A stretch of DNA of 64,000 nucleotides, taken from positions 58,464-122,463 of the forward strand of contig JBFLWJ010000008.1 in NCBI GenBank assembly GCA_040757835.1, in the 5' to 3' direction. This DNA is from Actinomycetota bacterium. GTDB taxonomy: Bacteria; Actinomycetota; Geothermincolia; Geothermincolales; RBG-13-55-18. A program made the translations under genes and the position numbers. Positions 45,206 through 64,000 of this stretch are shown one piece after another (the stretch's first letter is position 1; each line of letters begins with the position of its first letter). The notes under the pieces were generated by a model. That model was not told the origin of the DNA, ran no database searches, and saw nothing but the letters and a program-made list of their open reading frames with translations.

Positions 45206-45227
45206 ACGGCGCGAGAAAGGAGCGGGT

Positions 45228-46022
45228 ATGCAAGATTATCAATACCTCATCTACGAGATAGAAGAGGATATCGGGAAGATAACCCTGAACCGACCCAAGA
45301 AGCGCAACGCCCTCAACGCGGAGCTCATCGCCGAGCTCAAGGACGCGGTGCCGCGCATGAACGCGGAGCCCGAGGTACGCTGCGCCATCATCACCGGCGC
45401 CGGCGAGAAAGCATTCTGCGCCGGCGCGGACCTCCCCATCTTCGACACCCTGCAGGAGGTCGAGAAGGCCTACGCGTACCTTCGCAACGACGGCGGGACC
45501 ATCACCCGTGCCCTGGAGACGGCGGAGTTTCCGTGGATAGCGGCGGTGAAGGGTGCCTGCGTGGCGGGCGGATTGGAGCTGGCCTTGTGCTGCGACATGA
45601 TCGTGGCGGGCGAGAACTCCTTGTTCGGCGTGCTTGAGATAAACATCGGGCTGCTTCCCGGGTGGGGAGGTACCGTGCGCCTGCCCAGGGCTATACCGGT
45701 GCGCAAGGCCAAGGAGCTTCTCCTCACCGGGGCCATGATCGACGCCCAGGAGGCGTACCGCCTGGGATTGCTGAACAAGGTGGTCGCGGTGGAAAAGGTG
45801 GAGGAAGAGGCCATGAACATGGCGCGCAGCGTCGCCTCCAAGTCAAAGGCGGCCGTACGCGCCGGGATGAACATCGTCAACAACTCGCTGGCATGTGCCT
45901 CCATAGACGCCGCCCTGGCCCTGGAGCGTGGCACCATCATGACCCTGGTCGGCGCGGAGGAGACGCGCAAGTACCTGGAGCCGGCCATCCGCATGATGCA
46001 GGACATGGAGAAGAAGGACTGA
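45228..46022 (+). CDS. enoyl-CoA hydratase/isomerase (crotonase family)
   Basis: ITLNRPKKRNALN...GAGEKAFCAGADL...AAVKGACVAGGLELALCCD crotonase motifs. Confidence 0.85.
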   Translation: MQDYQYLIYEIEEDIGKITLNRPKKRNALNAELIAELKDAVPRMNAEPEVRCAIITGAGEKAFCAGADLPIFDTLQEVEKAYAYLRNDGGTITRALETAEFPWIAAVKGACVAGGLELALCCDMIVAGENSLFGVLEINIGLLPGWGGTVRLPRAIPVRKAKELLLTGAMIDAQEAYRLGLLNKVVAVEKVEEEAMNMARSVASKSKAAVRAGMNIVNNSLACASIDAALALERGTIMTLVGAEETRKYLEPAIRMMQDMEKKD

Positions 46023-46035
46023 GAAGGGAGCGTAT

Positions 46036-47196: not shown

Positions 47197-47226
47197 GACT
47201 GCTGAGGGAAAAAGGAGGGGACCTGG

Positions 47227-48783: not shown

Positions 48784-48800
48784 GGATTCAGGAGGTTATC

Positions 48801-50165
48801 ATGGCTAAGAAAGACAATCCCTTCAAAAACCTGCTCAAGCCGATCAAGATCGGTCCGGTCGAGCTCAAGCACCGTATGGTGCTGGCTCCAATGAACGACA
48901 CCCTGTCCGGCCACAATGGCGAGGCGACTGAGCAGATGATCTCCTATTACGCCGCGCGGGCTAAGGGCGGGGCGGCAATGGTCATCACCGGCGCGATCAT
49001 GGGGACAAAACTGGCATCGCAATTCGTATGGGGGCGCAACCTGTACTGTTTCCATCCCGGGCACATCCAGGGGCTGAAGCTGCTGACCGACCGCATCCAT
49101 TATTTCGGTTCGAACGCCTGCGCCCAGATCACCATCGGGTTCGGACGCCAGGGACATTCCGCCGACCACCACGAGCTCGCTCCCGCTGCCACCGGGGGCC
49201 TTCCTTATGAGATAGCGCTCGAAAAAGGCCCCAAGGCCATCGAGATCTCCTGGAGGAACATCGAGCATCCCCGCTCCTTCCTGGTGGGCCAGATGACCCG
49301 GGAGATGACCATCGACGAGATCCACAGCGAACAGAAGGAGTTCGCCCGCAGCTGCCAGTTGCTGGTCATCGCCGGGTTCGATGCCATCGAGATCCACGCG
49401 CCGCACGGATACCTCGAGCACCAGTTCCTGTCGCCCTTCTCCAACAAGCGGACGGACATGTACGGGGGGGAATGGAGAAACCGCAAGCGCTTCCTGAACG
49501 AGGTCACCGAACAGGTACGTTATGCGGTAGGCTCGGGCGTCGCCCTGGGGGTGCGCATCAGTGCCGAGGAGCACATGGAGGGAGGTCTTACCCGCGAGGA
49601 GATGATCGACGTCGGTAGAGACCTCGAGGAACGCGGTATCGATTACCTGAGCCTCTCCGACGGCGGCGGATACGAGGAGGGCGGGCACCTCGTCCCCGAC
49701 AAAGACCGGGCCAAGCATATTCCTGAACACGGCAGGGACTTCAAGAAGGCCATCAAGATCCCGGTGATGGTCGCCTCCCAGCACGACCCGGTCAAGGCGG
49801 ACAAGGATATCGGGGACGGGATGTTCGATCTCTCGGCCCTGGGACGCCAGCTGTTCATCGACCCCGAGTACCCCAACAAGGTAACGGAGAACCGCCCCGA
49901 TGATATCAACAGGTGCCGTTACTGCCACACCTGTCTTGGCATATCCCTGGCCGGGGCCGGTATCGCATGTCCGTACAACCCGGAACTGGGCCGTGAGTAC
50001 GCCAACCCGGAGTACATGATCGGACCACGCGCGGAACACGAGATCATCATCCCGCGCGGCATGCTCGCCGGTGACATGCCGGCCTTGGACCGGCCCTGGT
50101 GGAAGCCGGAATATCCGGTTATCGAGAAGGCCTGGAGACCTTTCCGCGGCCCGGGCAAGAGATAG
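48801..50165 (+). CDS. NADH:flavin oxidoreductase, Old Yellow Enzyme family (enoate/2,4-dienoyl-CoA reductase-like, with C-terminal Cys cluster)
   Basis: FKNLLKPIKIGPVELKHRMVLAPM N-terminus, HAPHGYLEHQFLSP active-site region and C-terminal CRYCHTCLG...CPYN cysteines. Confidence 0.75.
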   Translation: MAKKDNPFKNLLKPIKIGPVELKHRMVLAPMNDTLSGHNGEATEQMISYYAARAKGGAAMVITGAIMGTKLASQFVWGRNLYCFHPGHIQGLKLLTDRIHYFGSNACAQITIGFGRQGHSADHHELAPAATGGLPYEIALEKGPKAIEISWRNIEHPRSFLVGQMTREMTIDEIHSEQKEFARSCQLLVIAGFDAIEIHAPHGYLEHQFLSPFSNKRTDMYGGEWRNRKRFLNEVTEQVRYAVGSGVALGVRISAEEHMEGGLTREEMIDVGRDLEERGIDYLSLSDGGGYEEGGHLVPDKDRAKHIPEHGRDFKKAIKIPVMVASQHDPVKADKDIGDGMFDLSALGRQLFIDPEYPNKVTENRPDDINRCRYCHTCLGISLAGAGIACPYNPELGREYANPEYMIGPRAEHEIIIPRGMLAGDMPALDRPWWKPEYPVIEKAWRPFRGPGKR

Positions 50166-50223
50166 GGAGGATACCGGCAAGAGTCGGGGGCTGTTAATCG
50201 CCTCAGGATAAAAGGAGTAGATC

Positions 50224-51237
50224 ATGAGCGACGGATTCGAGAAGGACGGTTTCTTCAAGATCGACCCCGAGGCTCACCTGCTGGGGGAGATGGAGCCCAT
50301 CAACCACTTCCCCGGGGTGCAGATGTGGTGGCGGGCGATAGAGAGCATCAGGCGTCCCTTGTTGTTGGGCTTGAAGCCCCCCGTATTCGAGGGATTGGAA
50401 CCGAAGGAGTTGAACAAGGACGAGGACCCCGAAGCCCTGCTGGAGTACATGGACAAGTACGGGGTGGACATCGCCTGCTGCCTGCCCGAGTCCATGATGG
50501 ACACCACCGGCTACACCAGCCGCTGGATGTCGAACGGGGCCATGGCCAGGGTGGTGGACGCCCACCCCGACCGCTTCATGTACCAGCCCAACATCAGCCC
50601 CATCAAGTTCAAGGGCGTGAAGAACACCATCTGGGAGCTGGAGTACTGGGTGAAGGAGCGGGGGGCGAAGATATTCAAGTTCTATCCCCCCGAGGATACC
50701 TACATCAACGACCCCGACCTCTGGCCCTTCTACGAGAAGGCGGAGGAGCTCCAGATCGTGCTCGACATCCACACCGGCTTCTGCTGGGTGCCCCCCGGAA
50801 AGAGCAAGTACGCCCTGCCCCTGCAGCTGGACGACGTGGCCCGGGACTTCCCCGACTTAAAGCTCGTCGCCTTCCACATGGGCTACCCCTACTGCGACGA
50901 CCTCAACATGGTGGCCATGGGGCACCCCAACGTCTACCCCTGCCTCAGCCTGCTCATCCCCTGGGCGATAGGGGCGCCGCGCAAGTTCGCCAAGATCCTG
51001 GGGGAGGCCATGCGCTTCGTGGGCCCGGACCGCATCATCTGGGGATGCGACTATGCCGGCTTCGGCGTGCAGATAAAGACGGCGGTGATGGGCCTGCGCG
51101 AGTTCCAGTTCCCCGAGGACATGCAGGAGGATTACGGCTATCCCGCCCTCACCGACGAGGACCGCGCCAAGATCTTCGGGCTCAACCTGGCCGGCCTGCT
51201 GGGGGTGGACGCATCGAAGCGCAGGATCAAGACGTGA
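50224..51237 (+). CDS. amidohydrolase-2 family TIM-barrel hydrolase/decarboxylase-like protein
   Basis: 337 aa with HTGF, FHMGYPY and CDYAGFG metal-ligand-like positions typical of PF04909. Confidence 0.6.
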   Translation: MSDGFEKDGFFKIDPEAHLLGEMEPINHFPGVQMWWRAIESIRRPLLLGLKPPVFEGLEPKELNKDEDPEALLEYMDKYGVDIACCLPESMMDTTGYTSRWMSNGAMARVVDAHPDRFMYQPNISPIKFKGVKNTIWELEYWVKERGAKIFKFYPPEDTYINDPDLWPFYEKAEELQIVLDIHTGFCWVPPGKSKYALPLQLDDVARDFPDLKLVAFHMGYPYCDDLNMVAMGHPNVYPCLSLLIPWAIGAPRKFAKILGEAMRFVGPDRIIWGCDYAGFGVQIKTAVMGLREFQFPEDMQEDYGYPALTDEDRAKIFGLNLAGLLGVDASKRRIKT

Positions 51238-52205
51238 TGAGGCAAGAGCGCCGACTGGATGTTCATCACCATCTTCTCCCCCCGGAGTACCTGTCCGCCC
51301 TGAACAAGAGAGGCATAACCGAGTTCGCGGGCCGTCCCTTTCCCGAGTGGAGCCCGGAGGTCTCCCTCTCGCTCATGGACCGGCATGGTATAGAGGCCGC
51401 TATAACATCGGTTTCATGCCCGGGAGTATATTTCGGGGACATGGGGCTTGCCAGGGACCTCGCCCGCATGTGCAACGAATATGCCGCGGAGCTTTGTCGC
51501 GGAGAAGACAAGCGATGGGGAGCCTTCGCCGTGCTCCCGCTGCCTGACCTGGATGCCGCGATGGCGGAGCTCGAGTATGCGCTCGATACCCTGCAGCTCG
51601 ACGGCGTCTCCCTGCTCGCGAGCATCGGCAGGCGATATCTTGGCGACCCCTGCTTCGATGAAATATTCGCCGAGCTGAACAGGCGGAGGGCCGTGGTGTT
51701 CATACACCCCAGCGTCCCGCCGGGAAGCGATGTCCCGGAGTTGGACCTGCCATATTTTCTCGTGGAGTTCGTCTTCGATACCACCCGGGCAATAGCCAAC
51801 CTCCTTTTCGGCGGAACCATGGAGAGATGCGCGGACATACGCTTCATCGTGGCTCATGCCGGTGGGACTGTTCCCTACCTGGTGTTCAGGCTGTCCCTGG
51901 GGCAGTTTCTTCCCGGCCTGCAGGAGAAAGTGCCTGAGGGAGTCGCGGCCTATCTCGGCCGCCTTTACTACGACACCGCCCTTTCGGCGTCACCCGCCGC
52001 CCTCCGTTCGCTGCAGGAGCTGGTGGATAGCTCTCGTATAGTCTTTGGTAGCGATTATCCTTTCGCTCCCGAGCTGGCGACCGCGATCACCATCTCAGGC
52101 CTGGAGGACTACGACGGGTTCGACGAGCGGGAACTGAGAGCGGTCTATGGCGAGAACGCTCTATCTCTATTCCCCCGCCTGCAACCGACGGAAAGGAGAG
52201 GATAG
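51237..52205 (+). CDS. amidohydrolase-2 family protein (second paralog)
   Basis: LDVHHHLLPPEY N-terminal His motif, HPS, VAHAGG and GSDYPF. Start overlaps the upstream stop (TGATG). Confidence 0.65.
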   Translation: MRQERRLDVHHHLLPPEYLSALNKRGITEFAGRPFPEWSPEVSLSLMDRHGIEAAITSVSCPGVYFGDMGLARDLARMCNEYAAELCRGEDKRWGAFAVLPLPDLDAAMAELEYALDTLQLDGVSLLASIGRRYLGDPCFDEIFAELNRRRAVVFIHPSVPPGSDVPELDLPYFLVEFVFDTTRAIANLLFGGTMERCADIRFIVAHAGGTVPYLVFRLSLGQFLPGLQEKVPEGVAAYLGRLYYDTALSASPAALRSLQELVDSSRIVFGSDYPFAPELATAITISGLEDYDGFDERELRAVYGENALSLFPRLQPTERRG

Positions 52206-52208
52206 CCC

Positions 52209-53399
52209 GTGAGGGAGACCGAGATAGTCAATACTTCCACCCCGGACGGCCCCTTCAAGGTAGGGGTAAGGACCGAGTGGCTGGAGTTCGAGGGACGCGA
52301 CCTGCGCGTGGTCATCTGGTATCCCGCCCGGGAGGTGGAGAAAGCCGAGCCCCATGTATTCCGGAGCGATGATCTGGGATCCGCGGTGAGAGGGTCGGCG
52401 GTGCTGGAGGCCCCGCCCGACAGGTCGGGCGCGCCCTACCCCATGATACTCTACTCGCCGGCCCTGACCGCTCCCGCGGACGCCTCGGTATTCTATACCC
52501 AGAACCTGGCTAGCCACGGCTATGTCGTCGCCGCCGTCGATCACCTGGATGCAAACCACTTGGACCTGGTCGTCCGGGACGGGAACTGGAAAAACCTCCT
52601 CCGATACTTTCCGAGGATGTTCAAAGAGTTCGTCACCGGCGATCCGAGCGTAACGGTCCTCGTGATGTTCAGCGGCCATTTTCGCAGTACCGAGTTCGGG
52701 CTGAAATACCGGCCGCATGAGGCGAGGCTGGCGATCGACAATGCCGCTATATGGAACGGGGACGCCTCATCGCCGCTGTACGGCATGATCGACCTCGATA
52801 CAATAGGCATGACCGGTCATTCCCTCGGGGCGTGGACCACCCTCCTACTCGGGGGCATGTCCCTCAAGTACGACGAGAGCTTATGTGCCGGCGACTCCGA
52901 TATCAACAGTGGGTGCATCGCCGATCATGACCCCGTCTGCACCCGGTCCGCCAGATCCCTTGAGAGCCCCTACGCGCTGCGGGACGAAAGGATCAAGGCG
53001 ATACTCCCCATGGCTTCGCCGATCTTCCACCACGATGCGCCGGATAACGCAAGGGAGATCAAGGTACCGTTGATGTTCCTTACCGGCGATGATAAGAGAT
53101 GGGAAGCCACTTTCTACCGCCAGAAAGAGGTGTACGACAGCGCGCCAGGCCCCAAACATTTCGTGGTCATCCGGGACACCGATCACTATGTGATCTGCGA
53201 CATGTGGCTGAAATCCCGCGTTATCCTTGCTAGATTCCGGCTACCCAAATTCAAGCAGAATTTCCAGGAGAAGGCCCAGGCTTACAAGGATTACTCAGTG
53301 GCTTTTTTCGATCTCTATCTCAAGGGCGATGACAGTAGAGCGGACGTCCTGCAAGCGCCGAACCAACCTCTTGTAAAACAGGTATGGAGCGAGATATGA
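52209..53399 (+). CDS. alpha/beta-hydrolase fold enzyme (PAF-acetylhydrolase/dienelactone-hydrolase-like)
   Basis: GHSLG nucleophile elbow (IGMTGHSLGAWTT). GTG start after AGGAGAGG. Confidence 0.6.
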   Translation: MRETEIVNTSTPDGPFKVGVRTEWLEFEGRDLRVVIWYPAREVEKAEPHVFRSDDLGSAVRGSAVLEAPPDRSGAPYPMILYSPALTAPADASVFYTQNLASHGYVVAAVDHLDANHLDLVVRDGNWKNLLRYFPRMFKEFVTGDPSVTVLVMFSGHFRSTEFGLKYRPHEARLAIDNAAIWNGDASSPLYGMIDLDTIGMTGHSLGAWTTLLLGGMSLKYDESLCAGDSDINSGCIADHDPVCTRSARSLESPYALRDERIKAILPMASPIFHHDAPDNAREIKVPLMFLTGDDKRWEATFYRQKEVYDSAPGPKHFVVIRDTDHYVICDMWLKSRVILARFRLPKFKQNFQEKAQAYKDYSVAFFDLYLKGDDSRADVLQAPNQPLVKQVWSEI

Positions 53400-53526
53400 A
53401 ACACCTGAAGGAGGGGGATGCCCTCATCCACATCCTCTATGAAGTGGAGCAAGCGGCGGCAGGCCGTATAGATTATATGCCGTGGGACCGTCTTTATCTA
53501 TGCGTCTGGCTTCAGTGGCTATATAT

Positions 53527-53697
53527 GGCCCGTCCTGCCCGAAAGGCGGTGTGCTTCACGGGTACCCTTGTTGCATGTGGCCTCTCTTCTTGTCAGATGC
53601 AGCTCTTGAGCTGGTAATTCAAGGATGATCTGCTGGATGTCGTCAGCATCCTGAAATGACGGGATTGCCCACTGTGTTTAAAACGTGCCCATTTTCG
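53527..53697 (+). repeat. intergenic repeat family copy B
   Basis: box1 ggcccgtcctgcccgaaaggcggtgtgctt (identical to copy A). box2 cactgtgtttaaaacgtgcccattttcg lies about 127 bp downstream. Confidence 0.75.
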
Positions 53698-53786
53698 ATG
53701 GCCAACCTGGCCGGCCTGACAGTCATATAGAATTGGTATAATTATCGCAGAGCGGAGAGCAAAGTAATCGATGGGTAAGAAAGCAT

Positions 53787-53918
53787 GGAGATCAACGACC
53801 TGGTTCATGATTATTTCAACGTTGATGCCGATGAAGTATGGTCGACCGTGGAGAAGGATCTGCCTGCCCTCAAGGCCGACATACTCACCATCCTAAGGGA
53901 TATTGAAGCTTGACAATT
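53787..53918 (+). CDS. possible 43-aa acidic small protein
   Basis: ATG preceded by AAGAAAG. Translation MEINDLVHDYFNVDADEVWSTVEKDLPALKADILTILRDIEA. It lies downstream of an extended -10 promoter (TGGTATAAT near 53735). Too short for the ORF track. Confidence 0.25.
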
Positions 53919-54030
53919 CTCACGCAATCCAATGCAACTGCATGAATATAGTTACTGGTAGAACGAACTTGGATTTCGTTGGAAACGCCAATGCGGTGGC
54001 TGCCTAAAAACCGAAAAAGGAGGTTCGGCG

Positions 54031-54243
54031 ATGCCTGAATCAAGCAATTGTCCCAAGTGCGGCGGGGCTATGATCCCGGGGTCGCTCAAAGAGCGAACGT
54101 TATATGGTCCCTCTCCATACCAGTGGGTTCCATCAGATGATGCTCCTTTCCCCATGAAGGGAGCTCCAAGCAATCGACATGATATCTCGATATATCGTTG
54201 TGAGGATTGTGGATACCTGGAATTATATGCAATATCCGGCTGA
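54031..54243 (+). CDS. 70-aa zinc-ribbon protein
   Basis: Strong RBS AAAAAGGAGG. CPKCGG...CEDCG tetra-Cys ribbon. Confidence 0.5.
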   Translation: MPESSNCPKCGGAMIPGSLKERTLYGPSPYQWVPSDDAPFPMKGAPSNRHDISIYRCEDCGYLELYAISG

Positions 54244-54295
54244 TATAAATGACTTGTCTGGTTCTCTATGACGAGTAGATCAGAAGACTCACATG

Positions 54296-54458
54296 CCTCG
54301 AAAGGCGCTGTGCTTGGCAAAATATCTGGCGGAACGGTGTTCTTTGCTCTCCGCCTATGTATATCTTAAGCGGCGTTTTTTCGGCTAAAGGCTGCAAAAT
54401 ACATAGGAGCTTGGAAACCGCCCGATTCCCGGCTGTGTCCAGATTGTGCCTATTTTCT
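54296..54458 (+). repeat. intergenic repeat family copy C
   Basis: box1 cctcgaaaggcgctgtgctt and box2 gctgtgtccagattgtgcctattttct. TGTCCA-N18-ATAATT forms a plausible sigma70 promoter about 100 bp upstream of the AbiEi start. Confidence 0.7.
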
Positions 54459-54555
54459 GATAATTGCTGAGTGTCCAAGATATTCGGATAAGAACCTTTA
54501 CAAAACATGTCTTTATAGCTAATATTATTAATTATAAAAGCATGATACGTAAAGG

Positions 54556-55371
54556 ATGAAAGAGATGGTTGTCAATGAGTTCCTGGAACGGCACCCGGTG
54601 TTCACCCTTACAGAGTTCAAGGCTTTCCTGGATGAGAACGCATCGGTGAACAAGTGGACGCAGCAAAACCTCCTCGCATATTACAAGAAGAAAGGGAGAA
54701 TACTCGGGGTCAAGCGGGGGCTTTACGCCGTGGTACCCCTAGGCATGGAGCCGGACAGCTTCCTTCCCGATCCATTCCTTCTTGCGGCCAAGATGGCGGA
54801 GGATGCAGTGCTCTCATATCATACGGCCCTGGAATTCTACGGTTCTGCCTATTCCGTTCACAATCGCTTCATATACTTGTCTGGGGTTCAGAGAAAAGAA
54901 CTATCCTGGAGGGGATACGTTTTTAGAAGCGTCCCCTTCCCGGGAGCCCTGCTCAAGAAGAGGAAAGAGTCGTTCGGTATAAATGCAGAAGACCGAAGGG
55001 GTCTTGGAGTGAAGGTCACGGGCTTGGAGCGCACCATGGTCGACGTTTTCGACCGGCCCGACCTCGGGGGCGGCTGGGAAGAGATATGGCGCAGCCTGGA
55101 CCTCGTGGACTATCTGAAACTGGAAGAGGTGGTGAGGTACGCCCTGCTCCTCGACAACTCCACGACGGTGGCAAAAGTCGGCTTCTACTTAGAGCAGAAC
55201 AAGGAACGCCTGATGGTGGATGACTCGCATCTCGATCGCCTGAGGAAAAAGATGCCCCTTTCCCCCCGCAAAATGGAGCGCACAGGAAGCCAGCCCGGCA
55301 AATTCGTATCCGCTTGGAACCTGGCAGTTCCCAGGCCAGTTTACGAAAAGGTATGGGAGGAGGTCACATGA
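54556..55371 (+). CDS. abiEi: AbiEi-family type IV toxin-antitoxin system antitoxin (transcriptional regulator domain)
   Basis: N-terminal AbiEi_4-like winged helix (VFTLTEFKAFL...GRILGVKRGLYAVVP). 271 aa. Overlaps the downstream gene by ATGA. Confidence 0.7.
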   Translation: MKEMVVNEFLERHPVFTLTEFKAFLDENASVNKWTQQNLLAYYKKKGRILGVKRGLYAVVPLGMEPDSFLPDPFLLAAKMAEDAVLSYHTALEFYGSAYSVHNRFIYLSGVQRKELSWRGYVFRSVPFPGALLKKRKESFGINAEDRRGLGVKVTGLERTMVDVFDRPDLGGGWEEIWRSLDLVDYLKLEEVVRYALLLDNSTTVAKVGFYLEQNKERLMVDDSHLDRLRKKMPLSPRKMERTGSQPGKFVSAWNLAVPRPVYEKVWEEVT

Positions 55372-56336
55372 TCCTTTCCCGGGAAGGGCTTGCGCGGGCG
55401 GTGGCCTCGAGCGGCTTCCGCGAGGATTACCTGGAGAAGAGCATCAGGTTGCTGTATCTCCTGGAGGCGATCAAGGATAATCCGTTCCTGAGATCGAGAT
55501 TGGTTTTAAAGGGAGGAACGGCACTGAACCTCTTTATCATGGAACTGCCCCGCCTTTCCGTGGACATCGACCTCAATTACATCGGCTCTCCGGAAAGGGG
55601 GGTCATGCTGGAGGAACGGCCCCTGGTCGAACGCACCCTCCAGGCTATCTGCGGCCGCGAGGGATTCCGGGTGAGGCGCATACCAAGCGATCATGCGGGA
55701 GGTAAGTGGTTATTGAGGTTTGATAGCACGCTGGGGAGAGGAGGCTCTCTCGAACTCGACATCAACTTCCTTATGAGAATCCCTCTTTGGGATCCAAATA
55801 CTATTGATTCTCAAGCCCTAGGCGATCATCAAGTAGGTGGCATCGCTGTACTGGACAAACATGAGCTTATGGCGGGTAAAGCCGTTGCCCTGCTGTCGCG
55901 CAGGGCGGCCCGTGACCTCTTCGATTGCCATGGGTTGCCAAGAGCCCTATCCCTTGTTGCCGACAAGCTGCGTCTGGCCTTTGTCGTAAATGGAGGCATG
56001 AGCCGGAGGGATTGGCGCGATGTATCGCTTGACGACATAGGATACGACATCAATGAATTGCATAACGTTCTCCTGCCCACTCTCCGCAATGATTATGCAT
56101 CGGGTATCAAGGATGTCAGTTCTTGGGCAGACCGCCTGGTGCTCGAGTGCCGGGAAGAGCTTTCGGTCCTCTTGCCCTTGCGAGCGAACGAGGTCGATTT
56201 TCTCACGTCTTTGAACGAGGAAGGAGAGATACTCCCAGGGCTGCTGACATCAGATAAATATCTGGCACGTAAGATCGAGAGGCAACCTGGGTTGCTCTGG
56301 AAGGCTCAAAATGTCAAGGAATACAGAAGAACATAG
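55368..56336 (+). CDS. abiEii: AbiEii/AbiGii-family nucleotidyltransferase toxin (DUF1814)
   Basis: Hallmark LKGGTALNLF...RLSVDIDLNY nucleotidyltransferase motif. 322 aa. Confidence 0.8.
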   Translation: MILSREGLARAVASSGFREDYLEKSIRLLYLLEAIKDNPFLRSRLVLKGGTALNLFIMELPRLSVDIDLNYIGSPERGVMLEERPLVERTLQAICGREGFRVRRIPSDHAGGKWLLRFDSTLGRGGSLELDINFLMRIPLWDPNTIDSQALGDHQVGGIAVLDKHELMAGKAVALLSRRAARDLFDCHGLPRALSLVADKLRLAFVVNGGMSRRDWRDVSLDDIGYDINELHNVLLPTLRNDYASGIKDVSSWADRLVLECREELSVLLPLRANEVDFLTSLNEEGEILPGLLTSDKYLARKIERQPGLLWKAQNVKEYRRT

Positions 56337-56449
56337 TTGCTCAACACAAAATGTACCCTCACTTTATCTGTTCTCGAGATATAATTCACTGCGCATCGTG
56401 AATATAATACGATATGGTAATATATGTTAAGCTCGTGCACCTCGAAAGG

Positions 56450-56602
56450 CGTTGTGCTTACCCACCAATCCTGCGAATCCAATAATTGTAGGCACCACAA
56501 ACACATGCTTTTAGCTGGGACAATATGTCCGTTGTGACCTATTCCGTTTTTTTCTCGAAAAGTGTGATTTGCCCTGCTGTGTCCATATTGTGCCCATTTT
56601 CG
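56450..56602 (+). repeat. intergenic repeat family copy D
   Basis: box1 cctcgaaaggcgttgtgctt and box2 gctgtgtccatattgtgcccattttcg. TGTCCA-N17-TATATT forms a promoter-like element upstream of qatA. Confidence 0.7.
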
Positions 56603-56762
56603 TATATTTGGGCATTTACTAGGTACTCTTGTGGATTAATTGCGCTAATTGCCTATCTGACACCTGAATCAATGGTGTGCTTTCAGCACCACAGATGTAT
56701 CCTATACTCTGTAGAAGGGGTTGTAGAATACTGTAAAACCTATTTTACATGAGGGGGATGCT

Positions 56763-58562
56763 ATGTGGCCTGATAATGAGACGTCGATCGACCTTCTAGG
56801 CTTTGAACATCTTGTCGATGCACTTGAAATTGTGCTGACAGACTCGAAATTGCTCCCTGTGACAGTGGGCGTAGTTGGTGACTGGGGGTCTGGAAAAACG
56901 AGCCTAATACGGATGGCTGAGGAAAAGCTCAAGCAGATTCCCGGAATCGTAACTGTATCTTTTAATCCTTGGCGTTTTGAGGGTTACGATGATATGAAAG
57001 CTGCTTTGATGTCGGCAGTTATTTCTGAAATTGAAAGGAAAATTGAGGATAACCCTACCGTATTCGAAAAAGTCGCTAGAGGCTTGAAAAGACTTGCGCG
57101 AATAATCGGTTTAGTTCGAGCAGCACCTATAGCTGCTGCAGCACTTGCCTCTGCAGCGCACGCCCCAACTGCTGTGGCGTTAATGTTAGGCGAAATGGCT
57201 GGAGCAGTTGCCGAAGCAGCTACAGAGGAAAAGGAAGATGAAGATACGGAATTAGTATTATCTATCGCTGAATTCCATCAGGAGTTCGAGCGAATAATGA
57301 AAGAATTGGGCGACGAAGTTGAAGCAGTCATCGTTTTTGTAGATGATCTCGATCGCTGTTTGCCAGAAACGATCATTAATACTTTCGAGGCCATCCGATT
57401 GTTCCTCCATGTTAACAAGACTGCATATGTAATTGCAGCCCACCCAAGGATAGTGGAGGCGGCAATTGAAGCTAGATACATTGACAACAGACGCGGGGAT
57501 GAGAATCTAGGGCGCGACTATTTAGAAAAGATCTTCCAAATGACAATAACGGTGCCAGCGCTTTCGGAACCAGAAGTTGAAAGCTATATTAACTTACTTC
57601 TGTCTGAGCAATATCTGGAGAGAGAAGAGTTAGACAAACTGCGTGAGGAAGCTAGTAAGCGGCGGCGTGAGGGCCAATTCGGTGTAGTAATGAACTATGG
57701 AATCGCAAGTGGGATAATTGGAGGCTCAAAGGAACTCGATTCTGACTTTGCTCTAGCAAATCAAATTGCGCCCGTGCTTGCTAGGGGTTTACGCGGAAAT
57801 CCACGGCAGATTAAAAGATTCCTCAATACATTTATGCTACGACGGCGTACTGCGGAGCGGCGGGGTATAGACTTGGACCCTGCAATTTTGGCGAAATTAA
57901 TGATACTTGAGTTAAATCTGGAAGAGTTTAAGCAACTCTTCTTATGGCAGCTTGTGCAGGATGGTCAACCCAACGAACTGGTTGAAGCGGAGGAAAAAGC
58001 GCGCTCGAATGCTATACAGGAACTAGAAGGAGAAGTCGCAACTTGGGCAGCCAGACCCAATGTGTTGGAATGGTTGTGTCTTGATCCACCTCTAGCCGAT
58101 TTACCGCTAGGTAGATATTTCTATTTCTCCCGCGACAGACTATCTCCGGCTGCTCCTGCAGCAAGATTATCAGCTGCTCTACAGGAACTCCTGGCACGGC
58201 TACAAGTTGATTCAGACGCACTACGTCGGGCTGCCATCAATGAAGCAGTAAGTCTGCCGAGGGAGCAAATTGTTCAGGTCTTCGATGCTCTTCTTGAGAA
58301 GGCAATTCGTAAGCCAGAGGGACCTGCAATGGATAGCAGCTTGGAACTCGCGGCGAAACAACAAACGCTCATTGATGATTTTGCTAATGCACTTGAAAGA
58401 ATCCCTGTCGCGAGCGTACCAATTCATCTGCCCTTGAAAATCCGATTAACTTTCGGGGATCAGAATCCACGTCTCGAAGCAGTATTAGATTCTTGGGATA
58501 AATGCGGGTCTGGGGATCTAAGAAATGCTATTGTCCAAGCCCGAAGCAAGGGAGATACGTAA
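56763..58562 (+). CDS. qatA: QatA, KAP-family P-loop NTPase of the QatABCD anti-phage system
   Basis: Walker A GVVGDWGSGKTSLI and KAP-type Walker B VIVFVDDLDRCLPE. 599 aa. It is the first gene of a four-gene translationally coupled operon. Confidence 0.8.
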   Translation: MWPDNETSIDLLGFEHLVDALEIVLTDSKLLPVTVGVVGDWGSGKTSLIRMAEEKLKQIPGIVTVSFNPWRFEGYDDMKAALMSAVISEIERKIEDNPTVFEKVARGLKRLARIIGLVRAAPIAAAALASAAHAPTAVALMLGEMAGAVAEAATEEKEDEDTELVLSIAEFHQEFERIMKELGDEVEAVIVFVDDLDRCLPETIINTFEAIRLFLHVNKTAYVIAAHPRIVEAAIEARYIDNRRGDENLGRDYLEKIFQMTITVPALSEPEVESYINLLLSEQYLEREELDKLREEASKRRREGQFGVVMNYGIASGIIGGSKELDSDFALANQIAPVLARGLRGNPRQIKRFLNTFMLRRRTAERRGIDLDPAILAKLMILELNLEEFKQLFLWQLVQDGQPNELVEAEEKARSNAIQELEGEVATWAARPNVLEWLCLDPPLADLPLGRYFYFSRDRLSPAAPAARLSAALQELLARLQVDSDALRRAAINEAVSLPREQIVQVFDALLEKAIRKPEGPAMDSSLELAAKQQTLIDDFANALERIPVASVPIHLPLKIRLTFGDQNPRLEAVLDSWDKCGSGDLRNAIVQARSKGDT

Positions 58563-59266
58563 TGGGAACATCGTCTGATTATTCCGGATCAACTGGAGGC
58601 CCTTGGACTCGTTTCAAACGAGCGGCAACAGATTTCGCGAAATACGGCGGTGAGGAACGTGCCCGTCGCGTTATGGCTCGCCACGTTGCCACATTAGGTG
58701 GCGCAAGAAGAGCGTCAGAATCTGCAAAAGCTGGCATATCAACTGCTCAGAGATTAGGCGAGGCATTAACAAGGCTTGGGACATTAGGATTAGATGCAAC
58801 ATTACAATCATATAATCTTGATTACTTGATCGGCAAAGACAGATTCGATGTTCTGCAAGCCCTTATTGAAATAATTGCTCCGCCAGGTACAGATCTAGAA
58901 AGTGAAGCAGCCCGCAATGCAGCTTTAGATGTTATTGAAGAAGTATTCGGCGAGGGTAATTCTTATGAAGATTTGTCGTCTACTCAGTTTGACCACGATG
59001 GGCTTGTCAATGCATTAGAGTTGTTTATTGCAGCATATGTCTATAACCGGGCCATTCCACTTATCGAAAAGCGGCTTAGCGAGTTAAGTGCAGGCGAGGC
59101 TGATAATCGTGATAAAGCTCTACATATCTTCATTAAACAACTTGTCAGGCTGAGGTTAAAAGACATGGATCCTTTGCAGATAGACTGGAAGGGGACAGAA
59201 GGTCATAGCATTATCCAACGGCTAATCCGTGGCTTATATAGCCAATTGGAATCTTGGGATGAATGA
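58562..59266 (+). CDS. qatB: QatB (unknown-function component of QatABCD)
   Basis: 235-aa ORF overlapping the qatA stop (TAATG) and the qatC start (ATGA). Its position and size match QatB. Confidence 0.55.
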   Translation: MGTSSDYSGSTGGPWTRFKRAATDFAKYGGEERARRVMARHVATLGGARRASESAKAGISTAQRLGEALTRLGTLGLDATLQSYNLDYLIGKDRFDVLQALIEIIAPPGTDLESEAARNAALDVIEEVFGEGNSYEDLSSTQFDHDGLVNALELFIAAYVYNRAIPLIEKRLSELSAGEADNRDKALHIFIKQLVRLRLKDMDPLQIDWKGTEGHSIIQRLIRGLYSQLESWDE

Positions 59267-60585
59267 CAATGCTATTCCAGCTAAGGATTCACTTAGATGA
59301 GCCGATTGAGACGGAATCAGTCGTGCTTGATTGGTCAAGAACACAAGGGACGATTGATTATAAGGGTGCGCTCTTTGATCGACTGCACCAACCTTCTATG
59401 GCATTGGACCTCCTACGATTTGGAGCGGTAGTGCATTGCGCCGACAAGTTAACTTCTCGTGAGGCCACGGAAAACGGATGGGAGCGTGAGATTTCCTTGA
59501 GTATCCCGGCGATGGACCCTGTCCAATGGCAATCTGCCACAGACACATTGACCGAGGCCCTTTGCTTTCTAAGCGGAGATCGATGGAGTTTGAGGTTTAG
59601 GGAGAGTTGCGAACAAGAGTCAGGAGCTCGAGTTCGCCAATCTTGTGATGCTATCTGCCTTTTTTCTGGAGGGCTTGATTCGCTTGCTGGTGCAATTGAT
59701 CTCTTGGAGGATGGCTTATCAGTGTGTCTTGTTGGTCATTACGACACCGGTCTTACACATGGCAGGCAACTTGAACTTGCCGAAGAACTTGGGAATCACT
59801 ATGGCAACAAGAAAGTGACCCTATTGCAGGTCTTCTTGCGTCCCTCGCCAAGAAGGGATAATCAGGTAGAGCCATTACCCCATGTAACCGAGAAAAGTAC
59901 AAGGGCGCGCTCATTTCTATTTATTGCGATGGGTCTTGCAGTTGCGAACACAATTGGTGATTCAATTCCCTTGTATGTTCCTGAAAATGGATTTATTGGC
60001 ATTAACGTTCCTTTAACGGCGGCCCGAAGGGGTAGTCTAAGCACGAGAACCACCCATCCATTCTTTCTGAGACGCCTTGAAGATGCATTTGCCCAGCTGG
60101 GAATTATGAACACAATCCGAAACCCTTATCGATTAAAGTCTAAAGGAGAGGTAATTGCTGAAAGTCGGAATCGAGGTCTCTTAGCTCGGCTTGCTCCGAG
60201 AACTATTTCATGTGCACATCCAGAAGCATCGAGATTTTCTGGCCAACCACAGGGCAACTGTGGCTATTGTTACCCTTGTCTTATCCGTCGTGCTTCGTTG
60301 CATCACGCTCATCTCGATTCTGCTGAGGGATATGCATATGATGTCCTTTCTGAACAAGGATTCGTTAGCTCCCAAAGTAGTCGGCCTTCTACACTTAAGG
60401 CTGTTATGAGAAACCTATCCAGGACATATAAATGGAGTGATGTGCTTCGGAACGGTCCAATACCCGGAAATGAACGTATTGAGTTCGAGGGGGTATTTCG
60501 TCGCGGGCAAGAGGAGCTGCGTGAGTGGCTACTTAGCTCACCTGAAAATAGCCTTAGAAGGCTACTTCCCGAGAGCATGCCATGA
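59263..60585 (+). CDS. qatC: QatC, QueC-like PP-loop ATPase
   Basis: PP-loop ICLFSGGLDSLAGA and C-terminal zinc motif CAHPE...CGYCYPCLIRR as in QueC. 440 aa. Confidence 0.8.
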   Translation: MTMLFQLRIHLDEPIETESVVLDWSRTQGTIDYKGALFDRLHQPSMALDLLRFGAVVHCADKLTSREATENGWEREISLSIPAMDPVQWQSATDTLTEALCFLSGDRWSLRFRESCEQESGARVRQSCDAICLFSGGLDSLAGAIDLLEDGLSVCLVGHYDTGLTHGRQLELAEELGNHYGNKKVTLLQVFLRPSPRRDNQVEPLPHVTEKSTRARSFLFIAMGLAVANTIGDSIPLYVPENGFIGINVPLTAARRGSLSTRTTHPFFLRRLEDAFAQLGIMNTIRNPYRLKSKGEVIAESRNRGLLARLAPRTISCAHPEASRFSGQPQGNCGYCYPCLIRRASLHHAHLDSAEGYAYDVLSEQGFVSSQSSRPSTLKAVMRNLSRTYKWSDVLRNGPIPGNERIEFEGVFRRGQEELREWLLSSPENSLRRLLPESMP

Positions 60586-61346
60586 TGGAATATCTTGATA
60601 CTCATTGCCATATAACGAAATATCGTCAGCCGCTACGTATTATAGAGAGTGCAGAAGAGAGCAAGGTTGGCATTATTGCAGTGACTGAGCTTCCGAGCGA
60701 ATTTAGAGCATTGGTGTTGAAGTTGGGTTCAAGGCCAGGAGCAATGCCAGCTTTGGGGTTGCACCCTTTGCTTGCTAAGAAGGCTTCACCTATTGAAATG
60801 AGCCTTTTTAAACACATGCTAGCTAGAACAAAGTTTGTAGGAGAGGTTGGACTTGACTTCTCACAGCAAGACATTTCTACGCGAAGACGCCAGATAGAAG
60901 TATTTGAAGCGATACTAATGCAACCTGGAATACAAGAGAAAATCCTAACAGTGCACTCTAGGCGAGCTGAGACGGAAACAATTGATTACATTATCCAGTC
61001 TCATGTCGCAGCCGTATTGCATTGGTACTCAGGCCCTGTTAAGTACATAGAGCGTGCACTTGATGCCGGCATCTATTTTTCAATAAATCTAGCAATGATG
61101 CGAAGCTCTCATGGAAAGCGAGTTCTAGCTGCCGTGCCCCAAGATAAAATACTGCTTGAGACAGATGGGCCATACATTAATATCGGGCCAAGACCGATAG
61201 AGCCCAAGGATATTCCATCGGTAGTCAACATGCTAACTAATTGTTGGGATTTGACACCAAAAGAAGTCTTAGAACAAGTCCGTAACAATATACTAGCGTT
61301 AAGAATGCGGGTGAAAACTGAAGACGAAATTGTAGATGACCCTTAA
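60582..61346 (+). CDS. qatD: QatD, TatD-family metal-dependent DNase
   Basis: TatD motifs DTHCH, GEVGLD, HSR and ETDGPY. 254 aa. Confidence 0.85.
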   Translation: MMEYLDTHCHITKYRQPLRIIESAEESKVGIIAVTELPSEFRALVLKLGSRPGAMPALGLHPLLAKKASPIEMSLFKHMLARTKFVGEVGLDFSQQDISTRRRQIEVFEAILMQPGIQEKILTVHSRRAETETIDYIIQSHVAAVLHWYSGPVKYIERALDAGIYFSINLAMMRSSHGKRVLAAVPQDKILLETDGPYINIGPRPIEPKDIPSVVNMLTNCWDLTPKEVLEQVRNNILALRMRVKTEDEIVDDP

Positions 61347-61356
61347 AGATATAGGG

Positions 61357-61877
61357 TTAATTCAAGGGAGAAGGAAAGCCATTTATATCTAGGATTGAAG
61401 GTGGGCTCTCTACCAAGGGATCTAAGCGGCTTGCTTGATCTGCTGCCCATTCGAGCCATCGCCCTAGTTCGCTATCGGCGTGAATCCCCCCATCAGTTTC
61501 TATCGCTTGCTGTCTGGCTGCATCGATGAAATCCCTGAGGATGTTGCTCTTGTGCCAGTTTTCGGCGAGCCCTATAAGACAATCCACGCGCATCCTCTCC
61601 CCTTCAACTAACTGCTGCTTCTCTTCCCAGAGGCGGTGTCGTTCCTGACTCTCCTTCTCTTCCAGTTCACGCTGGCGGGTTACGCCCACCAGAACCAGGC
61701 GATGTCGGGGTCGGTGAAGACAATGAAACGCTTGTGCTCCGAAAAATGCCCGCCCTGGAGTATCTCGATACGCCCGGGCTGCTTCACCACGCGGTGGTGG
61801 GGGAGGCCGGCTTCATTGTCGGGGTCTGAGTGGAGATATTTGGCCTGTACCAGGCCCACTTGGCCAAGCCTTATCAA
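61357..61877 (-). pseudogene. possible small gene downstream of the GHKL ATPase, apparently split by a frameshift (65-aa + 110-aa ORFs in different frames)
   Basis: Two minus-strand ORFs (61680..61877 and 61357..61689) abut near 61680-61689. The upstream one overlaps the ATPase stop (TTGA). Neither has a convincing RBS. Confidence 0.2.
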
Positions 61878-63871
61878 CTGGTACTGGCAATAAGCTCCAC
61901 CACCTTCTTGAGCTCAATTACAGGCAGAGAGTGGCCGTCCTCCACGCCTTTACGGGTGAGGATATGAGTCACCCCGAAAAGCTCCCGGCTGGCAACGACA
62001 CAGTCCTCCACGAGGTCCGCAAGGTCGAAGTTGCGACTCCACTTCCGGCCCACCTCCCAGACCACCACGAGCGCCAAGCTCTCGAACTTCTTGGGCGAGT
62101 GGCAGTCCGTTACCTCCTCGATGAGGCTGTCCAGGTTGACCTTGAACTCCAGCATGGCCGGGGGGTACCGCACCTCATCACGGCGGGCAAACGCGGCCGG
62201 GGACAAGCCCAGGGGGTTCGCTTTAGGTTCGTAGAGCGCCTTGGGGTGGTCCTTCTTCAGCTGGAATCCGAACACCCCGTCATAGGTAGCGGAGTGATAG
62301 GCACCATATAGGTCGTAACCGACAAGCTCCCCTTTCCCGCATAGCTCGGAGAAAAGCCATATCACCTCGGGCTCGTGCTGGGGTAGTGAGCGCAGGCCAT
62401 ATCCTCCGCCCAGGGGCGTCTTCTCCGCCCGCGCTTCGGCCTCCCTTATCCTCTGGTGTTGGGCCATTTTGTCGGCGGCCTGGGATGCCTGGACGCCGGC
62501 GGGCTTGAGGTGCTTCCGCCGGGCCACGTAGTAGCGGATGAGCGCATCCCCGAGCTTTTTTATCTCGTCAACGAGGTCGGGGTTGAAGCCCTTCCTTCCC
62601 AGGTCGGGCCTGACATCCGCAAGCTGCACCAGCATGAAGAAGCGGTCCTCGTTGCCGGCGGCATAACCCAGCTCCAGGGGTATCGGCTCTCCCACCACGG
62701 CGTTGTGGGCGACCACCCATGCCCCCGGCTTGATGGCCTTCAGCGACTTATCCCCCACCTCCAGCTCACTAAGCAGTTGAAAAAGGCCTGCCGAGAAGGC
62801 GAAGAAGGAATATGCAGCTTCGAGGTCCTTTCTGAGGATGGGAAAGTCATTCCTGTTCAGGATGCCCCGCTGGGGGTGGAATAGCTGGTTCTTGGTCCAT
62901 ATCCTGTACAGGGCATCCTGGTTCAGGTGCTTCGTCGCTACCGGAGAGCCCTCCTGGTGCTCCTGGTAGTAGCGGCCAAGGTCCAGGTAGTTGAAGGTGC
63001 CGATGGTGTGGGGCAGCGGGTAGCTGAAGGGTATCTCCCAAGAAGCCGTAGACCCCGCTCCGTCCATGAGGATAAGGTTCACTCTGACCTGCCTGTTCCA
63101 CCGCTCCCTGCGCAGCAGGTCCACGAAGCCTATGGCGGTCTTAGTGCGCAGGATAGCCTCCCACTTCTTCGGGGTCACCCCCAGGTGGGAGAGGGCTGCC
63201 GGCCGGGTTCCATCACCCAAGCGCAAGGTGACTGCTGTGCCCCTGCCGAGCTGGTTGAATATATTGCAGGTCTCCACCGCCGGGCGCGCTGCCGGTTGCT
63301 TCTGGCTCCCGTCTCCCATGGCCCAGCTCCGGCCGCCAGTAACCTCGAAGGAGAGGAAGCCGTCCTCTCCCATGGTAGAGACCCTGATATAGTCAGTGGC
63401 ATGTGCGAGGAAGGTAGCGCCCACCCCAATGTGACCCCGCAGGATCAAGCCCAGGTCGCTTGCCACCCGCTGCTTCAGGCTCAGGTTGGGAACCAGGATC
63501 TGCATGAGCTCGGTCTTCGTGAGCCCGAGCCCACTATCCACTACGGTCACCTCATTATCTCTGAGGTTGAGGATAAGCCAGATCTCGGGCTCTTCGGCGA
63601 ACTCGATATCCTCGCCCGACCAGATAAGTTTCACCCGGTGCTCCAGGGCATCGACGGCGTTCTGCGTGGCCTCGATGAAGAGGTCGTAGCTTCCCTGGTA
63701 GCTGTTCAGGATGTTCCTGACCGTCGCCCGTTTTAGAGCCTCCTCATCGGGCATCAGGTTCCAGAAGCCGAAGTGGTCGAAGGGCTTGGTTATGCCATTG
63801 GCCCGGGACCTCCTCGACCCTCTGGGCATGGGGACAACCGTCCCCAACAATAGGTTTGTGTTGCCGTTCAT
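61874..63871 (-). CDS. GHKL/Bergerat-fold ATPase (HATPase_c, MORC/Hsp90/MutL-like N-domain) with long uncharacterised C-terminal region
   Basis: Motif I FIEATQNAVDALEHR, motif II VVDSGLGLT and motif III GHIGVGATF. Start ATG at 63871 preceded by AAGGAGG. 665 aa. Convergent on qatD. Confidence 0.65.
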   Translation of the reverse strand: MNGNTNLLLGTVVPMPRGSRRSRANGITKPFDHFGFWNLMPDEEALKRATVRNILNSYQGSYDLFIEATQNAVDALEHRVKLIWSGEDIEFAEEPEIWLILNLRDNEVTVVDSGLGLTKTELMQILVPNLSLKQRVASDLGLILRGHIGVGATFLAHATDYIRVSTMGEDGFLSFEVTGGRSWAMGDGSQKQPAARPAVETCNIFNQLGRGTAVTLRLGDGTRPAALSHLGVTPKKWEAILRTKTAIGFVDLLRRERWNRQVRVNLILMDGAGSTASWEIPFSYPLPHTIGTFNYLDLGRYYQEHQEGSPVATKHLNQDALYRIWTKNQLFHPQRGILNRNDFPILRKDLEAAYSFFAFSAGLFQLLSELEVGDKSLKAIKPGAWVVAHNAVVGEPIPLELGYAAGNEDRFFMLVQLADVRPDLGRKGFNPDLVDEIKKLGDALIRYYVARRKHLKPAGVQASQAADKMAQHQRIREAEARAEKTPLGGGYGLRSLPQHEPEVIWLFSELCGKGELVGYDLYGAYHSATYDGVFGFQLKKDHPKALYEPKANPLGLSPAAFARRDEVRYPPAMLEFKVNLDSLIEEVTDCHSPKKFESLALVVVWEVGRKWSRNFDLADLVEDCVVASRELFGVTHILTRKGVEDGHSLPVIELKKVVELIASTS

Positions 63872-64000
63872 GGCAACCTCCTTTCGGTCGTTCCCCATTA
63901 AGGGGAATGGTTTACGGATAAACTTGTGGCGGCCTCACGGGAGACCGCCACCTCGAGACAGGCATCCCTTCCTGCCTGGTGGCGCCCTGCCCCGATATGG

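Follow-up and report, generated by a model that had tools for sequence, protein, structure and literature searches.

Probable modular defence island carrying AbiE and QatABCD behind copies of a short intergenic element in an uncultivated actinobacterium

Downstream of a hydrolase gene on a high-GC actinobacterial contig, the guanine plus cytosine (GC) content falls sharply, and genes of two defence systems, AbiE and QatABCD, follow one another behind copies of an intergenic element of ~190 nt. This locus raises the question of what the low-GC region is, and of whether the element had a part in building it. The analysis covered 64,000 nt of contig JBFLWJ010000008.1 (assembly GCA_040757835.1, positions 58,464 to 122,463 of the forward strand), hereafter the window, with positions counted from its first letter; loci used for comparison are designated L. 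The host is an uncultivated high-GC Actinomycetota bacterium, and the sequence comes from a metagenome-assembled genome (MAG). The region at 53400–61350 is likely to be a horizontally acquired, modular defence island that begins where a conserved catabolic cluster ends. AbiE and QatABCD are both known systems; the element is undescribed.

Composition and left edge of the island

The GC content was 0.480 over 53400–61350, as compared to 0.642 over 1–53399 and 0.607 over 61874–64000, and the fall began at the stop codon of the hydrolase gene (52209–53399, the stop ending at 53399), as in the initial annotation of this DNA, which had drawn a lower-GC island after the hydrolase gene at 53.4 kb. 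The left edge was also detected by homology: DNA similarity to two relatives, L013 and L014, in which the hydrolase is 86% and 71% identical, respectively, broke off at 53387/53388, at the hydrolase stop. In L014 (GCA_020060335.1), the gene order from the MerR/TetR gene to the hydrolase is kept and is followed by HpaB, with neither the island nor the repeat element. The contrast sharpened at third codon positions, where GC (GC3) ranged over 0.35–0.40 in the four Qat genes, 0.62–0.69 in the AbiE genes and 0.75–0.94 in surrounding host genes, and this difference between modules is consistent with their acquisition in separate events. The island consists of three modules, namely a decayed HepT/MNT remnant with a DUF6487 open reading frame (ORF), an intact AbiE pair and an intact qatABCD operon, each of which would have been gained separately and is headed by a co-oriented copy of the lineage-restricted element. 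The idea of a defence hotspot in a high-GC host, also put forward at the outset, agrees with the start of the island at the 3' end of a cluster that is syntenic in the island-free L014, with the codon-position GC that differs between modules and with the recurrence of the AbiE module elsewhere in other contexts.

An exact empty site was not obtained, since L014 shares the left flank but differs in the right flank. Direct repeats flanking the island were limited to a 9-mer, within chance expectation, and no tRNA or tmRNA gene was found.

The catabolic cluster spans 11 kb (42378–53399) and is syntenic with L014 193–11188. Its order is MerR/TetR regulator, thiolase, DUF35-type OB protein, enoyl-CoA hydratase, acyl-CoA dehydrogenase, AMP ligase, OYE reductase, amidohydrolases and PAF-AH-like hydrolase. 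In the window, the cluster is flanked by copies 0 and 1 of the element.

The defence modules

The AbiE module is formed by an AbiEi antitoxin and transcriptional regulator of 271 amino acids (aa) (54556–55371, + strand; PADLOC PDLC02270, E 7e-108, a full-length match of 358 bits) and an AbiEii nucleotidyltransferase toxin of 322 aa (55368–56336, +; PADLOC PDLC02305, E 2e-94), joined by a 4-nt ATGA overlap as read from the sequence. AbiEii contains both the LKGGTAL and the DIDL motif, and the AbiEi/AbiEii pair proposed at the outset was upheld by the PADLOC models. The accompanying assignment to Pfam families PF13338 and PF08843 held in part: AbiEii passes PF08843 comfortably (86.6 bits versus a cutoff of 22.5, E 3e-24), but AbiEi falls marginally under the cutoffs of the Pfam AbiEi_1 and AbiEi_4 families, with 20.1 bits versus 25 for PF13338 (N-terminal winged helix-turn-helix) and 21.8 versus 22.2 for PF09407 (C-terminal AbiEi domain). 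Among 2258 homologues of AbiEi, PF13338 is present in the precomputed annotation of many at 52–58% identity and of none of the closest (66–92%).

In the AbiE family, AbiEi represses its own operon and counteracts AbiEii, a nucleotidyltransferase toxin that arrests growth when this control fails during infection. Directly 5' of the abiEi ATG lies an imperfect palindrome of 61 nt (54495–54555; 30-nt arms, 77% complementary), which exhibits a mean identity of 0.89 among orthologous units. In distant AbiE operons (77–80% nucleotide identity) that are not preceded by the element, similarity to the window starts at 54495–54514, i.e., at the left edge of the palindrome or just inside it. The palindrome is a likely candidate for the AbiEi operator and promoter, and repression by AbiEi would act through it. 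The locus shares with described AbiE type IV toxin–antitoxin (TA) systems the two overlapping genes, putative N- and C-terminal AbiEi domains in the first of them, the GG and DxD motifs of the toxin and a palindrome in the promoter region; it differs in the sub-cutoff Pfam scores of AbiEi, in the ~190-nt element that precedes the operon in this lineage and in the broken abiEii genes of several homologous loci. The AbiE pair is intact and belongs to a known system, and it would presumably act in this host in the same way. Beside an intact abiEi, abiEii is split or truncated at L008 9222–10190, L010 10804–11774 and L019 2982–3116; the abiEii gene of the window is full length.

QatABCD is reportedly an anti-phage system described by Gao et al. 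in 2020. In the window, QatA, a KAP-family P-loop NTPase of 599 aa (56763–58562, +), matched PADLOC QatA (E 1.5e-96), Pfam KAP_NTPase (E 3e-48) and NCBIfam NF041923 (E 8e-115; 385 bits versus a cutoff of 600), and contains the motifs GDWGSGKT and DDLDRC. QatB, of 234 aa (58562–59266, +; PADLOC QatB E 1.5e-17), matched NCBIfam NF041924 over residues 46–222, where the helical domain of the family is expected (E 4e-25; 88.7 bits versus a cutoff of 100) and the QatB of Protein Data Bank (PDB) entry 9zee_A (E 1e-8). Translated from 58562, QatB begins MGTSSDYSGSTGGPW, which fixes this start against an alternative ATG further upstream (58502); its N terminus is MGTS, followed by a P-W pair, on a tail of about 45 aa. 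QatC, a QueC-family PP-loop enzyme of 440 aa (59263–60585, +; PADLOC E 5e-106), is the sole Qat protein above its NCBIfam cutoff (NF041925, 370 bits over a cutoff of 280). It aligned with the QatC of PDB 9vlk (E 8e-62) at CLFSGGLDS, LSTRTTHPF and CGxCxPCLIRRASL (CGYCYPCLIRRASL), the last containing a CxxCxxC cluster, while Pfam QueC matched its N-terminal part only. QatD, a TatD-family nuclease of 254 aa (60582–61346, +; PADLOC E 3e-58; Pfam TatD_DNase E 1e-47; NCBIfam NF041926 E 4e-64, 216 bits versus a cutoff of 230), begins DTHCH, with an N-terminal HCH (HxH) motif, and matched PDB 9xsn (E 7e-36), a TatD hydrolase which we take to be the A. baumannii QatD of PMC13434339.

The junctions, read from the sequence, are TAATG (qatA/qatB), ATGA (qatB/qatC) and ATGA (qatC/qatD), corresponding to overlaps of 1, 4 and 4 nt. 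The best family of each protein was the matching Qat hidden Markov model (HMM) in both PADLOC and NCBIfam (4/4), and the Pfam KAP_NTPase and TatD_DNase matches passed their cutoffs. With DDLDRC, SGGLDS and the cysteine cluster also present, the complete qatA-B-C-D operon with overlapping starts and stops was found as initially annotated, all four genes being placed by the HMM searches on which that annotation had made its assignment depend. QatA, QatB and QatD are divergent members of their families by sequence, and QatC is only 35–40% identical at the aa level to plasmid-borne QatC of Proteobacteria and other phyla.

In structural work of 2026, the QatB–QatC complex is shown to be the minimal core of Qat. 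QatC, which is QueC-like and ATP dependent, binds QatB and probably modifies its exposed N-terminal glycine; it requires the serines of SGGxDS and an invariant TxT that replaces the Y/D of QueC, and QatB depends on a glycine motif, MGTS, that is conserved at the N terminus and carried by a flexible tail (PMC13279940). QatD is presented in PMC13434339 as a TatD nuclease and a proposed effector restrained by nucleoside triphosphates (NTPs), and the assembly of QatB, QatC and QatD in one complex is reported in PMC13639016. Compared with these systems and with the structures 9vlk/9vll and 9zee/9zef for QatB–QatC and 9xsn for the TatD hydrolase, the window operon shares four co-directional, coupled genes in the order A-B-C-D, Walker A and B motifs in QatA, the MGTS tail and P-W pair of QatB, SGGxDS, TxT (STRTTHP) and a zinc-type cysteine cluster in QatC, and a TatD protein with HxH as QatD. 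It differs in the 35–40% identity of its QatC, in the scores of QatA, QatB and QatD under the equivalog cutoffs, in its uncultivated Actinomycetota host and in a short QatB tail. This divergent operon keeps every residue recently shown to be essential, and it is complete and probably functional. By analogy, QatC would modify the N-terminal glycine of QatB and QatD would be an NTP-restrained effector nuclease, with QatA as a KAP NTPase. With AbiE and Qat of the window, the range of these two known families now includes a high-GC lineage of uncultivated actinobacteria.

Upstream of AbiE, a 42-aa ORF (53785–53913, +) matched the HepT RNase toxin (Pfam PF01934, E 2.6e-8) at its C-terminal end only, covering positions 88–117 of the 120 in the profile; stops close the frame upstream, and the ORF is 78% identical at the aa level to the end of HepT in L001. 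A full-length HepT (about 120 aa) and its partner MNT are both absent at 53785–53913, and the ORF is the relic of a dead HepT/MNT TA module. It is followed by a 70-aa ORF encoding a DUF6487 zinc ribbon (54031–54243, +; Pfam PF20097, 28.9 bits versus a cutoff of 24), which adjoins the AbiE module in L008 and L009 too, with 85.5% aa identity. PADLOC returned no match for the DUF6487 or hydrolase proteins. What had been called a mini-ORF cassette does contain small ORFs, and is refined here to a truncated HepT and a DUF6487 ORF.

The ~190-nt element and its possible roles

The element comprises a left arm (AAGCNCA), box 1 (CTCGAAAGGCGNTGTGCTT), a central box (CCGCNAATNNATANCTTGAGCTG) and box 2 (CTGTGTCCANATYGTGCCCATTT), separated by poorly conserved linkers; the box patterns gave 0.00–0.02 chance matches in shuffled sequence. 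The window contains four copies, all on the + strand, three of which head the three modules. Copy 1 (53511–53707; nhmmer E 1e-35; box 1 GCCCGAAAGGCGGTGTGCTT, box 2 CTGTGTTTAAAACGTGCCCATTTTCG) lies 112 nt past the hydrolase stop. Copy 2 (54284–54477; E 4e-49) is the left end of a unit formed by the element and AbiE, homology to L005 starting at 54290, and copy 3 (56417–56616; E 8e-38) lies 81 nt past the abiEii stop, with 147 nt between it and the ATG of qatA. Copy 0 (42147–42345; E 1.5e-37) is 11 kb away, outside the island, between a glyoxalase gene (41727–42083, +) and a convergent MerR/TetR-fusion regulator (42378–43220, −); it has no evident cargo and is missing from the syntenic locus in L014. 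The initial placement of each system behind a copy of the repeat is therefore correct, but with copy 0 outside, the repeat is not specific to the island.

Pattern scans of public collections identified the element only in four metagenome contigs and, within GTDB, in two genomes, each an Actinomycetota MAG. Scans of viral contigs yielded no element; their single box-1 match, within a phage gene (L022), was a chance one. Assemblies that contain the element include GCA_964354675.1, GCA_041303555.1, JAFGDU01 and QZKE01, whereas GCA_020060335.1, GCA_936414295.1 and GCA_015711825.1 are negative for it. Further copies came from contigs reached via AbiEi homologues, for a total of about 20, including partial copies and near-duplicate contigs, of which about 16 lie outside the window. 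Within each contig, copies are co-oriented (four in the window, four in L008, three in L001 and two in L021). The element follows a co-oriented gene in 15/15 determinable copies, within 0–112 nt of the stop, and two copies overlap the stop slightly, by a few nt; genes downstream of the element occur in either orientation, about half being convergent. Overall, copies are about 60–65% identical within a genome, and exact identity between them is confined to boxes of at most 30 nt. On each of the six contigs identified purely from the DNA pattern, the element has TA or defence-type genes as neighbours: a 1260-aa protein with DUF4258, an AAA ATPase, DUF2283/DUF4258, AbiE and HepT/MNT. The AAA ATPase resembles, as judged by eye, the AAA_14/DUF4143 gene of L008, and DUF2283/DUF4258 was confirmed by Pfam in L003 and assigned in L004 from the identical element and right flank.

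The gene for the 1260-aa protein (L001 2997–6779, −) appears by eye to combine TIR, adenylate/guanylate cyclase, AAA ATPase and TPR domains. In L001, an Actinomycetota MAG, this gene and a DUF4258-like ORF lie between co-oriented copies at 2753–2946 and 7357–7556. Box 2 (window 54431–54458, and other copies) contains two 7-nt direct repeats, CTGTGTC and TTGTGCC, with an 11-nt period; many copies have a GATAAT- or TATATT-like hexamer after box 2, an arrangement that may recall the sites of winged-helix response regulators.

In AbiE operons with an AbiEi of at least 87% identity, the element is always directly upstream, and the sequence further upstream differs. Five left-hand contexts were counted: the window and L008/L009 have DUF6487 in this place, L005 has an unrelated flank, L018 a gene of 98 aa and L021 the gene of a URO-D protein. 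Similarity of the unit of element and AbiE sets in about 18 nt before CGAAAGG and runs as far as the abiEii stop. L003 and L004 have the same element with different left flanks. By these comparisons, the element forms the left end of units found in several genomic contexts, with a putative role in module exchange. Among five orthologous units, the identity of box 2 was 0.87 and the box-1 core was invariant, as compared to 0.78 for AbiEi third codon positions and 0.56–0.65 for the linkers. With box 2 and the box-1 core above AbiEi third positions in conservation and the linkers below them, the boxes appear to be under purifying selection.

In two samples of one ENA study, L003 599–794 and L005 348–553 have a left flank in common as far as box 1. 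Past box 1, they have different versions of the element and different cassettes (DUF2283/DUF4258 versus AbiE), which looks like strain-level cassette replacement at a single site. Just past the abiEii stop of L008, at 10191–10235, the box-1 core occurs twice within about 30 nt (AGGCTCGAAACC ... GGCTCGAAAGGCG); the doubled core may be a recombination scar.

Several classes of known sequence were considered for the element and set aside. No Rfam 15 family reached its gathering score anywhere in the window, 53400–56800 gave no match even at E ≤ 1, and blastn gave no match to known plasmid or phage sequence. A structured RNA or single-stranded DNA (ssDNA) fold was not supported by alifold on 4 and 13 copies (energy −1.3 kcal/mol), by a hand-built hairpin, whose covariation did not exceed that of shuffles, or by minimum free energy (MFE) z-scores, which lay between −2.7 and +1.6 and averaged close to 0 for either strand. 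A hidden small ORF was rejected because neither strand has a frame that stays open throughout the copies, and an 80-aa antisense ORF in copy 2 had no Pfam match. By inspection, the 13-copy alignment contains no GTTRRRY/RYYYAAC core of an attC or dif-like site. The hallmarks of a miniature inverted-repeat transposable element (MITE) were not found: the copies are about 63–65% identical rather than near-identical, have no target-site duplication at the four window copies and possess a weak inverted repeat only, the outer boxes forming a short, imperfect, 9-bp bulged inverted repeat (CGAAAGGC / GCC(CAT)TTTCG). Those of an integron or CALIN array (attC clusters without an integrase) were likewise not found, with neither an attC core nor a hairpin and with no IntI among the ORFs tested in the 64-kb window. 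Pfam detected no integrase or transposase in 27 GC3-supported ORFs of 1–38 kb, nor in the GC3-supported ORFs of 1–44 kb, and Phage_integrase had no match in any window ORF tested or in the called genes of L008, L018 and L021.

The element resembles BOX, ERIC, REP/BIME and MITE repeats in being short, non-coding, intergenic and multi-copy, in its construction from boxes and variable segments and in its weak terminal inverted repeat. It differs from them in its strict orientation to the upstream gene and within arrays, its association with TA and defence cargo, its divergent interiors, the lack of a target-site duplication and the lack of matches in Rfam, plasmids and phages. One reading, which we consider possible if somewhat doubtful, is that the element is a selfish or neutral, MITE- or REP-like interspersed repeat residing after genes, and that the modular appearance of the island reflects ordinary island turnover and homologous recombination between copies. 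In favour of such a repeat, the element occurs at non-defence sites, as seen for copy 0, for L008 (near arabinofuranosidase, ABC transporter and cupin genes) and for L021 (near B12-binding and URO-D genes); its confinement to a few related MAGs, its absence from close relatives at syntenic loci, the weak terminal inverted repeat and the partial copies in L008, L018 and L002 are also consistent with it. However, copies that are about 60–65% identical and yet near-invariant in their boxes across genomes do not look like the product of a recent MITE burst, target-site duplications are not seen, and the strict orientation, both relative to the upstream gene (15/15) and within each contig, is unexpected for a passive repeat.

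Integron cassette arrays and CALIN arrays are known to carry TA and phage-defence cassettes (bioRxiv 10.1101/2024.07.02.601719; PMC12614218). Co-oriented variable sites with conserved end boxes that separate small TA and defence modules are a feature common to these arrays and the present locus. One cassette in different contexts and outer boxes in an inverted-repeat relation are further points in common. The element differs in lacking the core, a stable ssDNA hairpin and a nearby recombinase, in lying on the 5' rather than the 3' side of co-oriented cargo and in heading modules of up to 4.7 kb. It is conceivable, on balance doubtful, that an undescribed, integron-like cassette system uses the element for recombination, with the site-specific recombinase encoded elsewhere and crossover in or near box 1. 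Equally tentative is the corollary that units of element and cargo would be excised and inserted, giving rise to co-oriented TA and defence arrays. The fullest form of this proposal, which we advance with the same reserve, is that the element may be the recognition site of an undescribed cassette-exchange system of uncultivated Actinomycetota, analogous to integrons and unrelated to attC/IntI, that arrayed the HepT remnant, AbiE and QatABCD downstream of host genes. Integrons are reported to be absent from Actinobacteria.

Cassette exchange would account for the co-orientation of all copies on each contig, for the sharp left boundary of a single element–AbiE unit behind five upstream sequences, for breakpoints of L003, L004 and L005 that fall within CCTCGAAAGGCGTTGTG and for the TA or defence-type neighbours of all six pattern-found contigs. 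Boxes apparently under purifying selection between drifting linkers, and the short imperfect inverted repeat of the outer boxes, also fit a recombination site. The failure to detect an integrase or transposase domain in the ORFs and called genes listed above argues against it, as do the lack of an attC-type hairpin (z near 0) and of a GTTRRRY/RYYYAAC core, the missing element or scar to the right of Qat, and a copy 0 at 42.1 kb that has no evident cargo. The mosaic interiors of the element (copy 2 versus L003 and L005) are equally consistent with homologous exchange.

Some results also count against the main reading, an acquired island of modules headed by the element. AbiE operons without the element exist at 77–80% nucleotide identity (L007, L010–12, L019–20), and AbiE therefore does not need it. 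No element copy, scar or direct repeat was found at the right end of the Qat module, so Qat is not demonstrable as an element-bounded unit. No fetched locus contains a Qat homologue, and the link between the element and Qat therefore derives from a single window, in which QatA, QatB and QatD score under the NCBIfam equivalog cutoffs. Most comparison loci were reached through AbiEi homologues, so that the sample of contexts is biased.

An effect on expression is an unlikely role for the element, although several of its features fit one. It could be a cis-acting module that serves the gene upstream as a 3'-end terminator or insulator, or offers the downstream cargo a regulator site with an outward promoter, or both, and that travels because it is useful to operons. 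The element always lies 0–112 nt past the stop of a co-oriented gene and overlaps the stop in two copies, its left arm and box 1 can pair as a hairpin in most copies (−5 to −16 kcal/mol), and the direct repeats of box 2 with the GATAAT/TATATT-like hexamer may resemble the sites of winged-helix regulators. However, covariation in the hairpin is no better than in shuffles and its mean z-score is only −0.86, the T-run has no preceding GC-rich stem, and Rfam gives no match. With convergent genes downstream in about half of the cases, the element cannot be a promoter in general, and AbiE has its own palindromic promoter region and is found in other genomes without the element.

Finally, it is very improbable that the island is an assembly artefact, in which systems foreign to this genome were joined chimerically at short repeats: the MAG source, the abrupt composition change and the repeats at the joins would allow it, but exact identity between copies of at most 30 nt is probably too short to mislead an assembler with longer k-mers, the block of DUF6487, element, AbiE and element was assembled independently in the NCBI MAG L008 (and up to abiEii in L009, a Logan assembly of a different run), and the intermediate GC3 of AbiE is as expected of a resident, partly ameliorated gene.

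If the element is a recombination or capture site, it would represent a new route of defence-island building in a phylum from which integrons are not known, and searches for its boxes could lead to new defence cassettes located behind them. Should the element be no more than a selfish repeat or a regulatory one, this defence island would be an ordinary one.

Right-hand flank and chromosomal background

To the right of qatD, two overlapping small ORFs of 110 and 65 aa (61357–61877, −) occupy a transition zone of rising GC (0.553). No homologues of them were detected: neither had a Pfam, PADLOC or NCBIfam match, nor a tblastn match in the fetched loci. Lying between qatD and an Hsp90-like gene, the two ORFs could be a single frameshifted gene. 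The right-hand neighbour (61874–63898, −) has host-like GC and encodes a divergent Hsp90-like (GHKL) ATPase of 674 aa. This protein matched the Hsp90 N-domain in a phmmer search of the PDB (E 2.5e-5), and its AF2 model (pLDDT 74.8) matched Hsp90 by Foldseek over the N and middle domains (E 3e-14). It has no Pfam or PADLOC family, and only 13 homologues were found in a collection of 5.8 billion proteins. In L015–L017, the Hsp90-like homologue adjoins a divergent helix-turn-helix (HTH) gene within integrase-bearing elements (3/3 contigs), two of which additionally carry an HTH_17 (Xis-like) gene and a Replic_Relax gene. The Hsp90-like gene may be an uncharacterised mobile-element cargo or defence gene. 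Because this neighbour is mobile-element cargo in other genomes, no right edge of the island could be drawn inside the window, and the mobile region may extend beyond its end.

Elsewhere in the window, at 21978–28687, two large paired genes encode a PD-(D/E)XK nuclease protein (1114 aa) and a UvrD-helicase/nuclease (1122 aa). The pair is an end-resection machine of the AddAB/AdnAB type and belongs to the ordinary chromosomal background.

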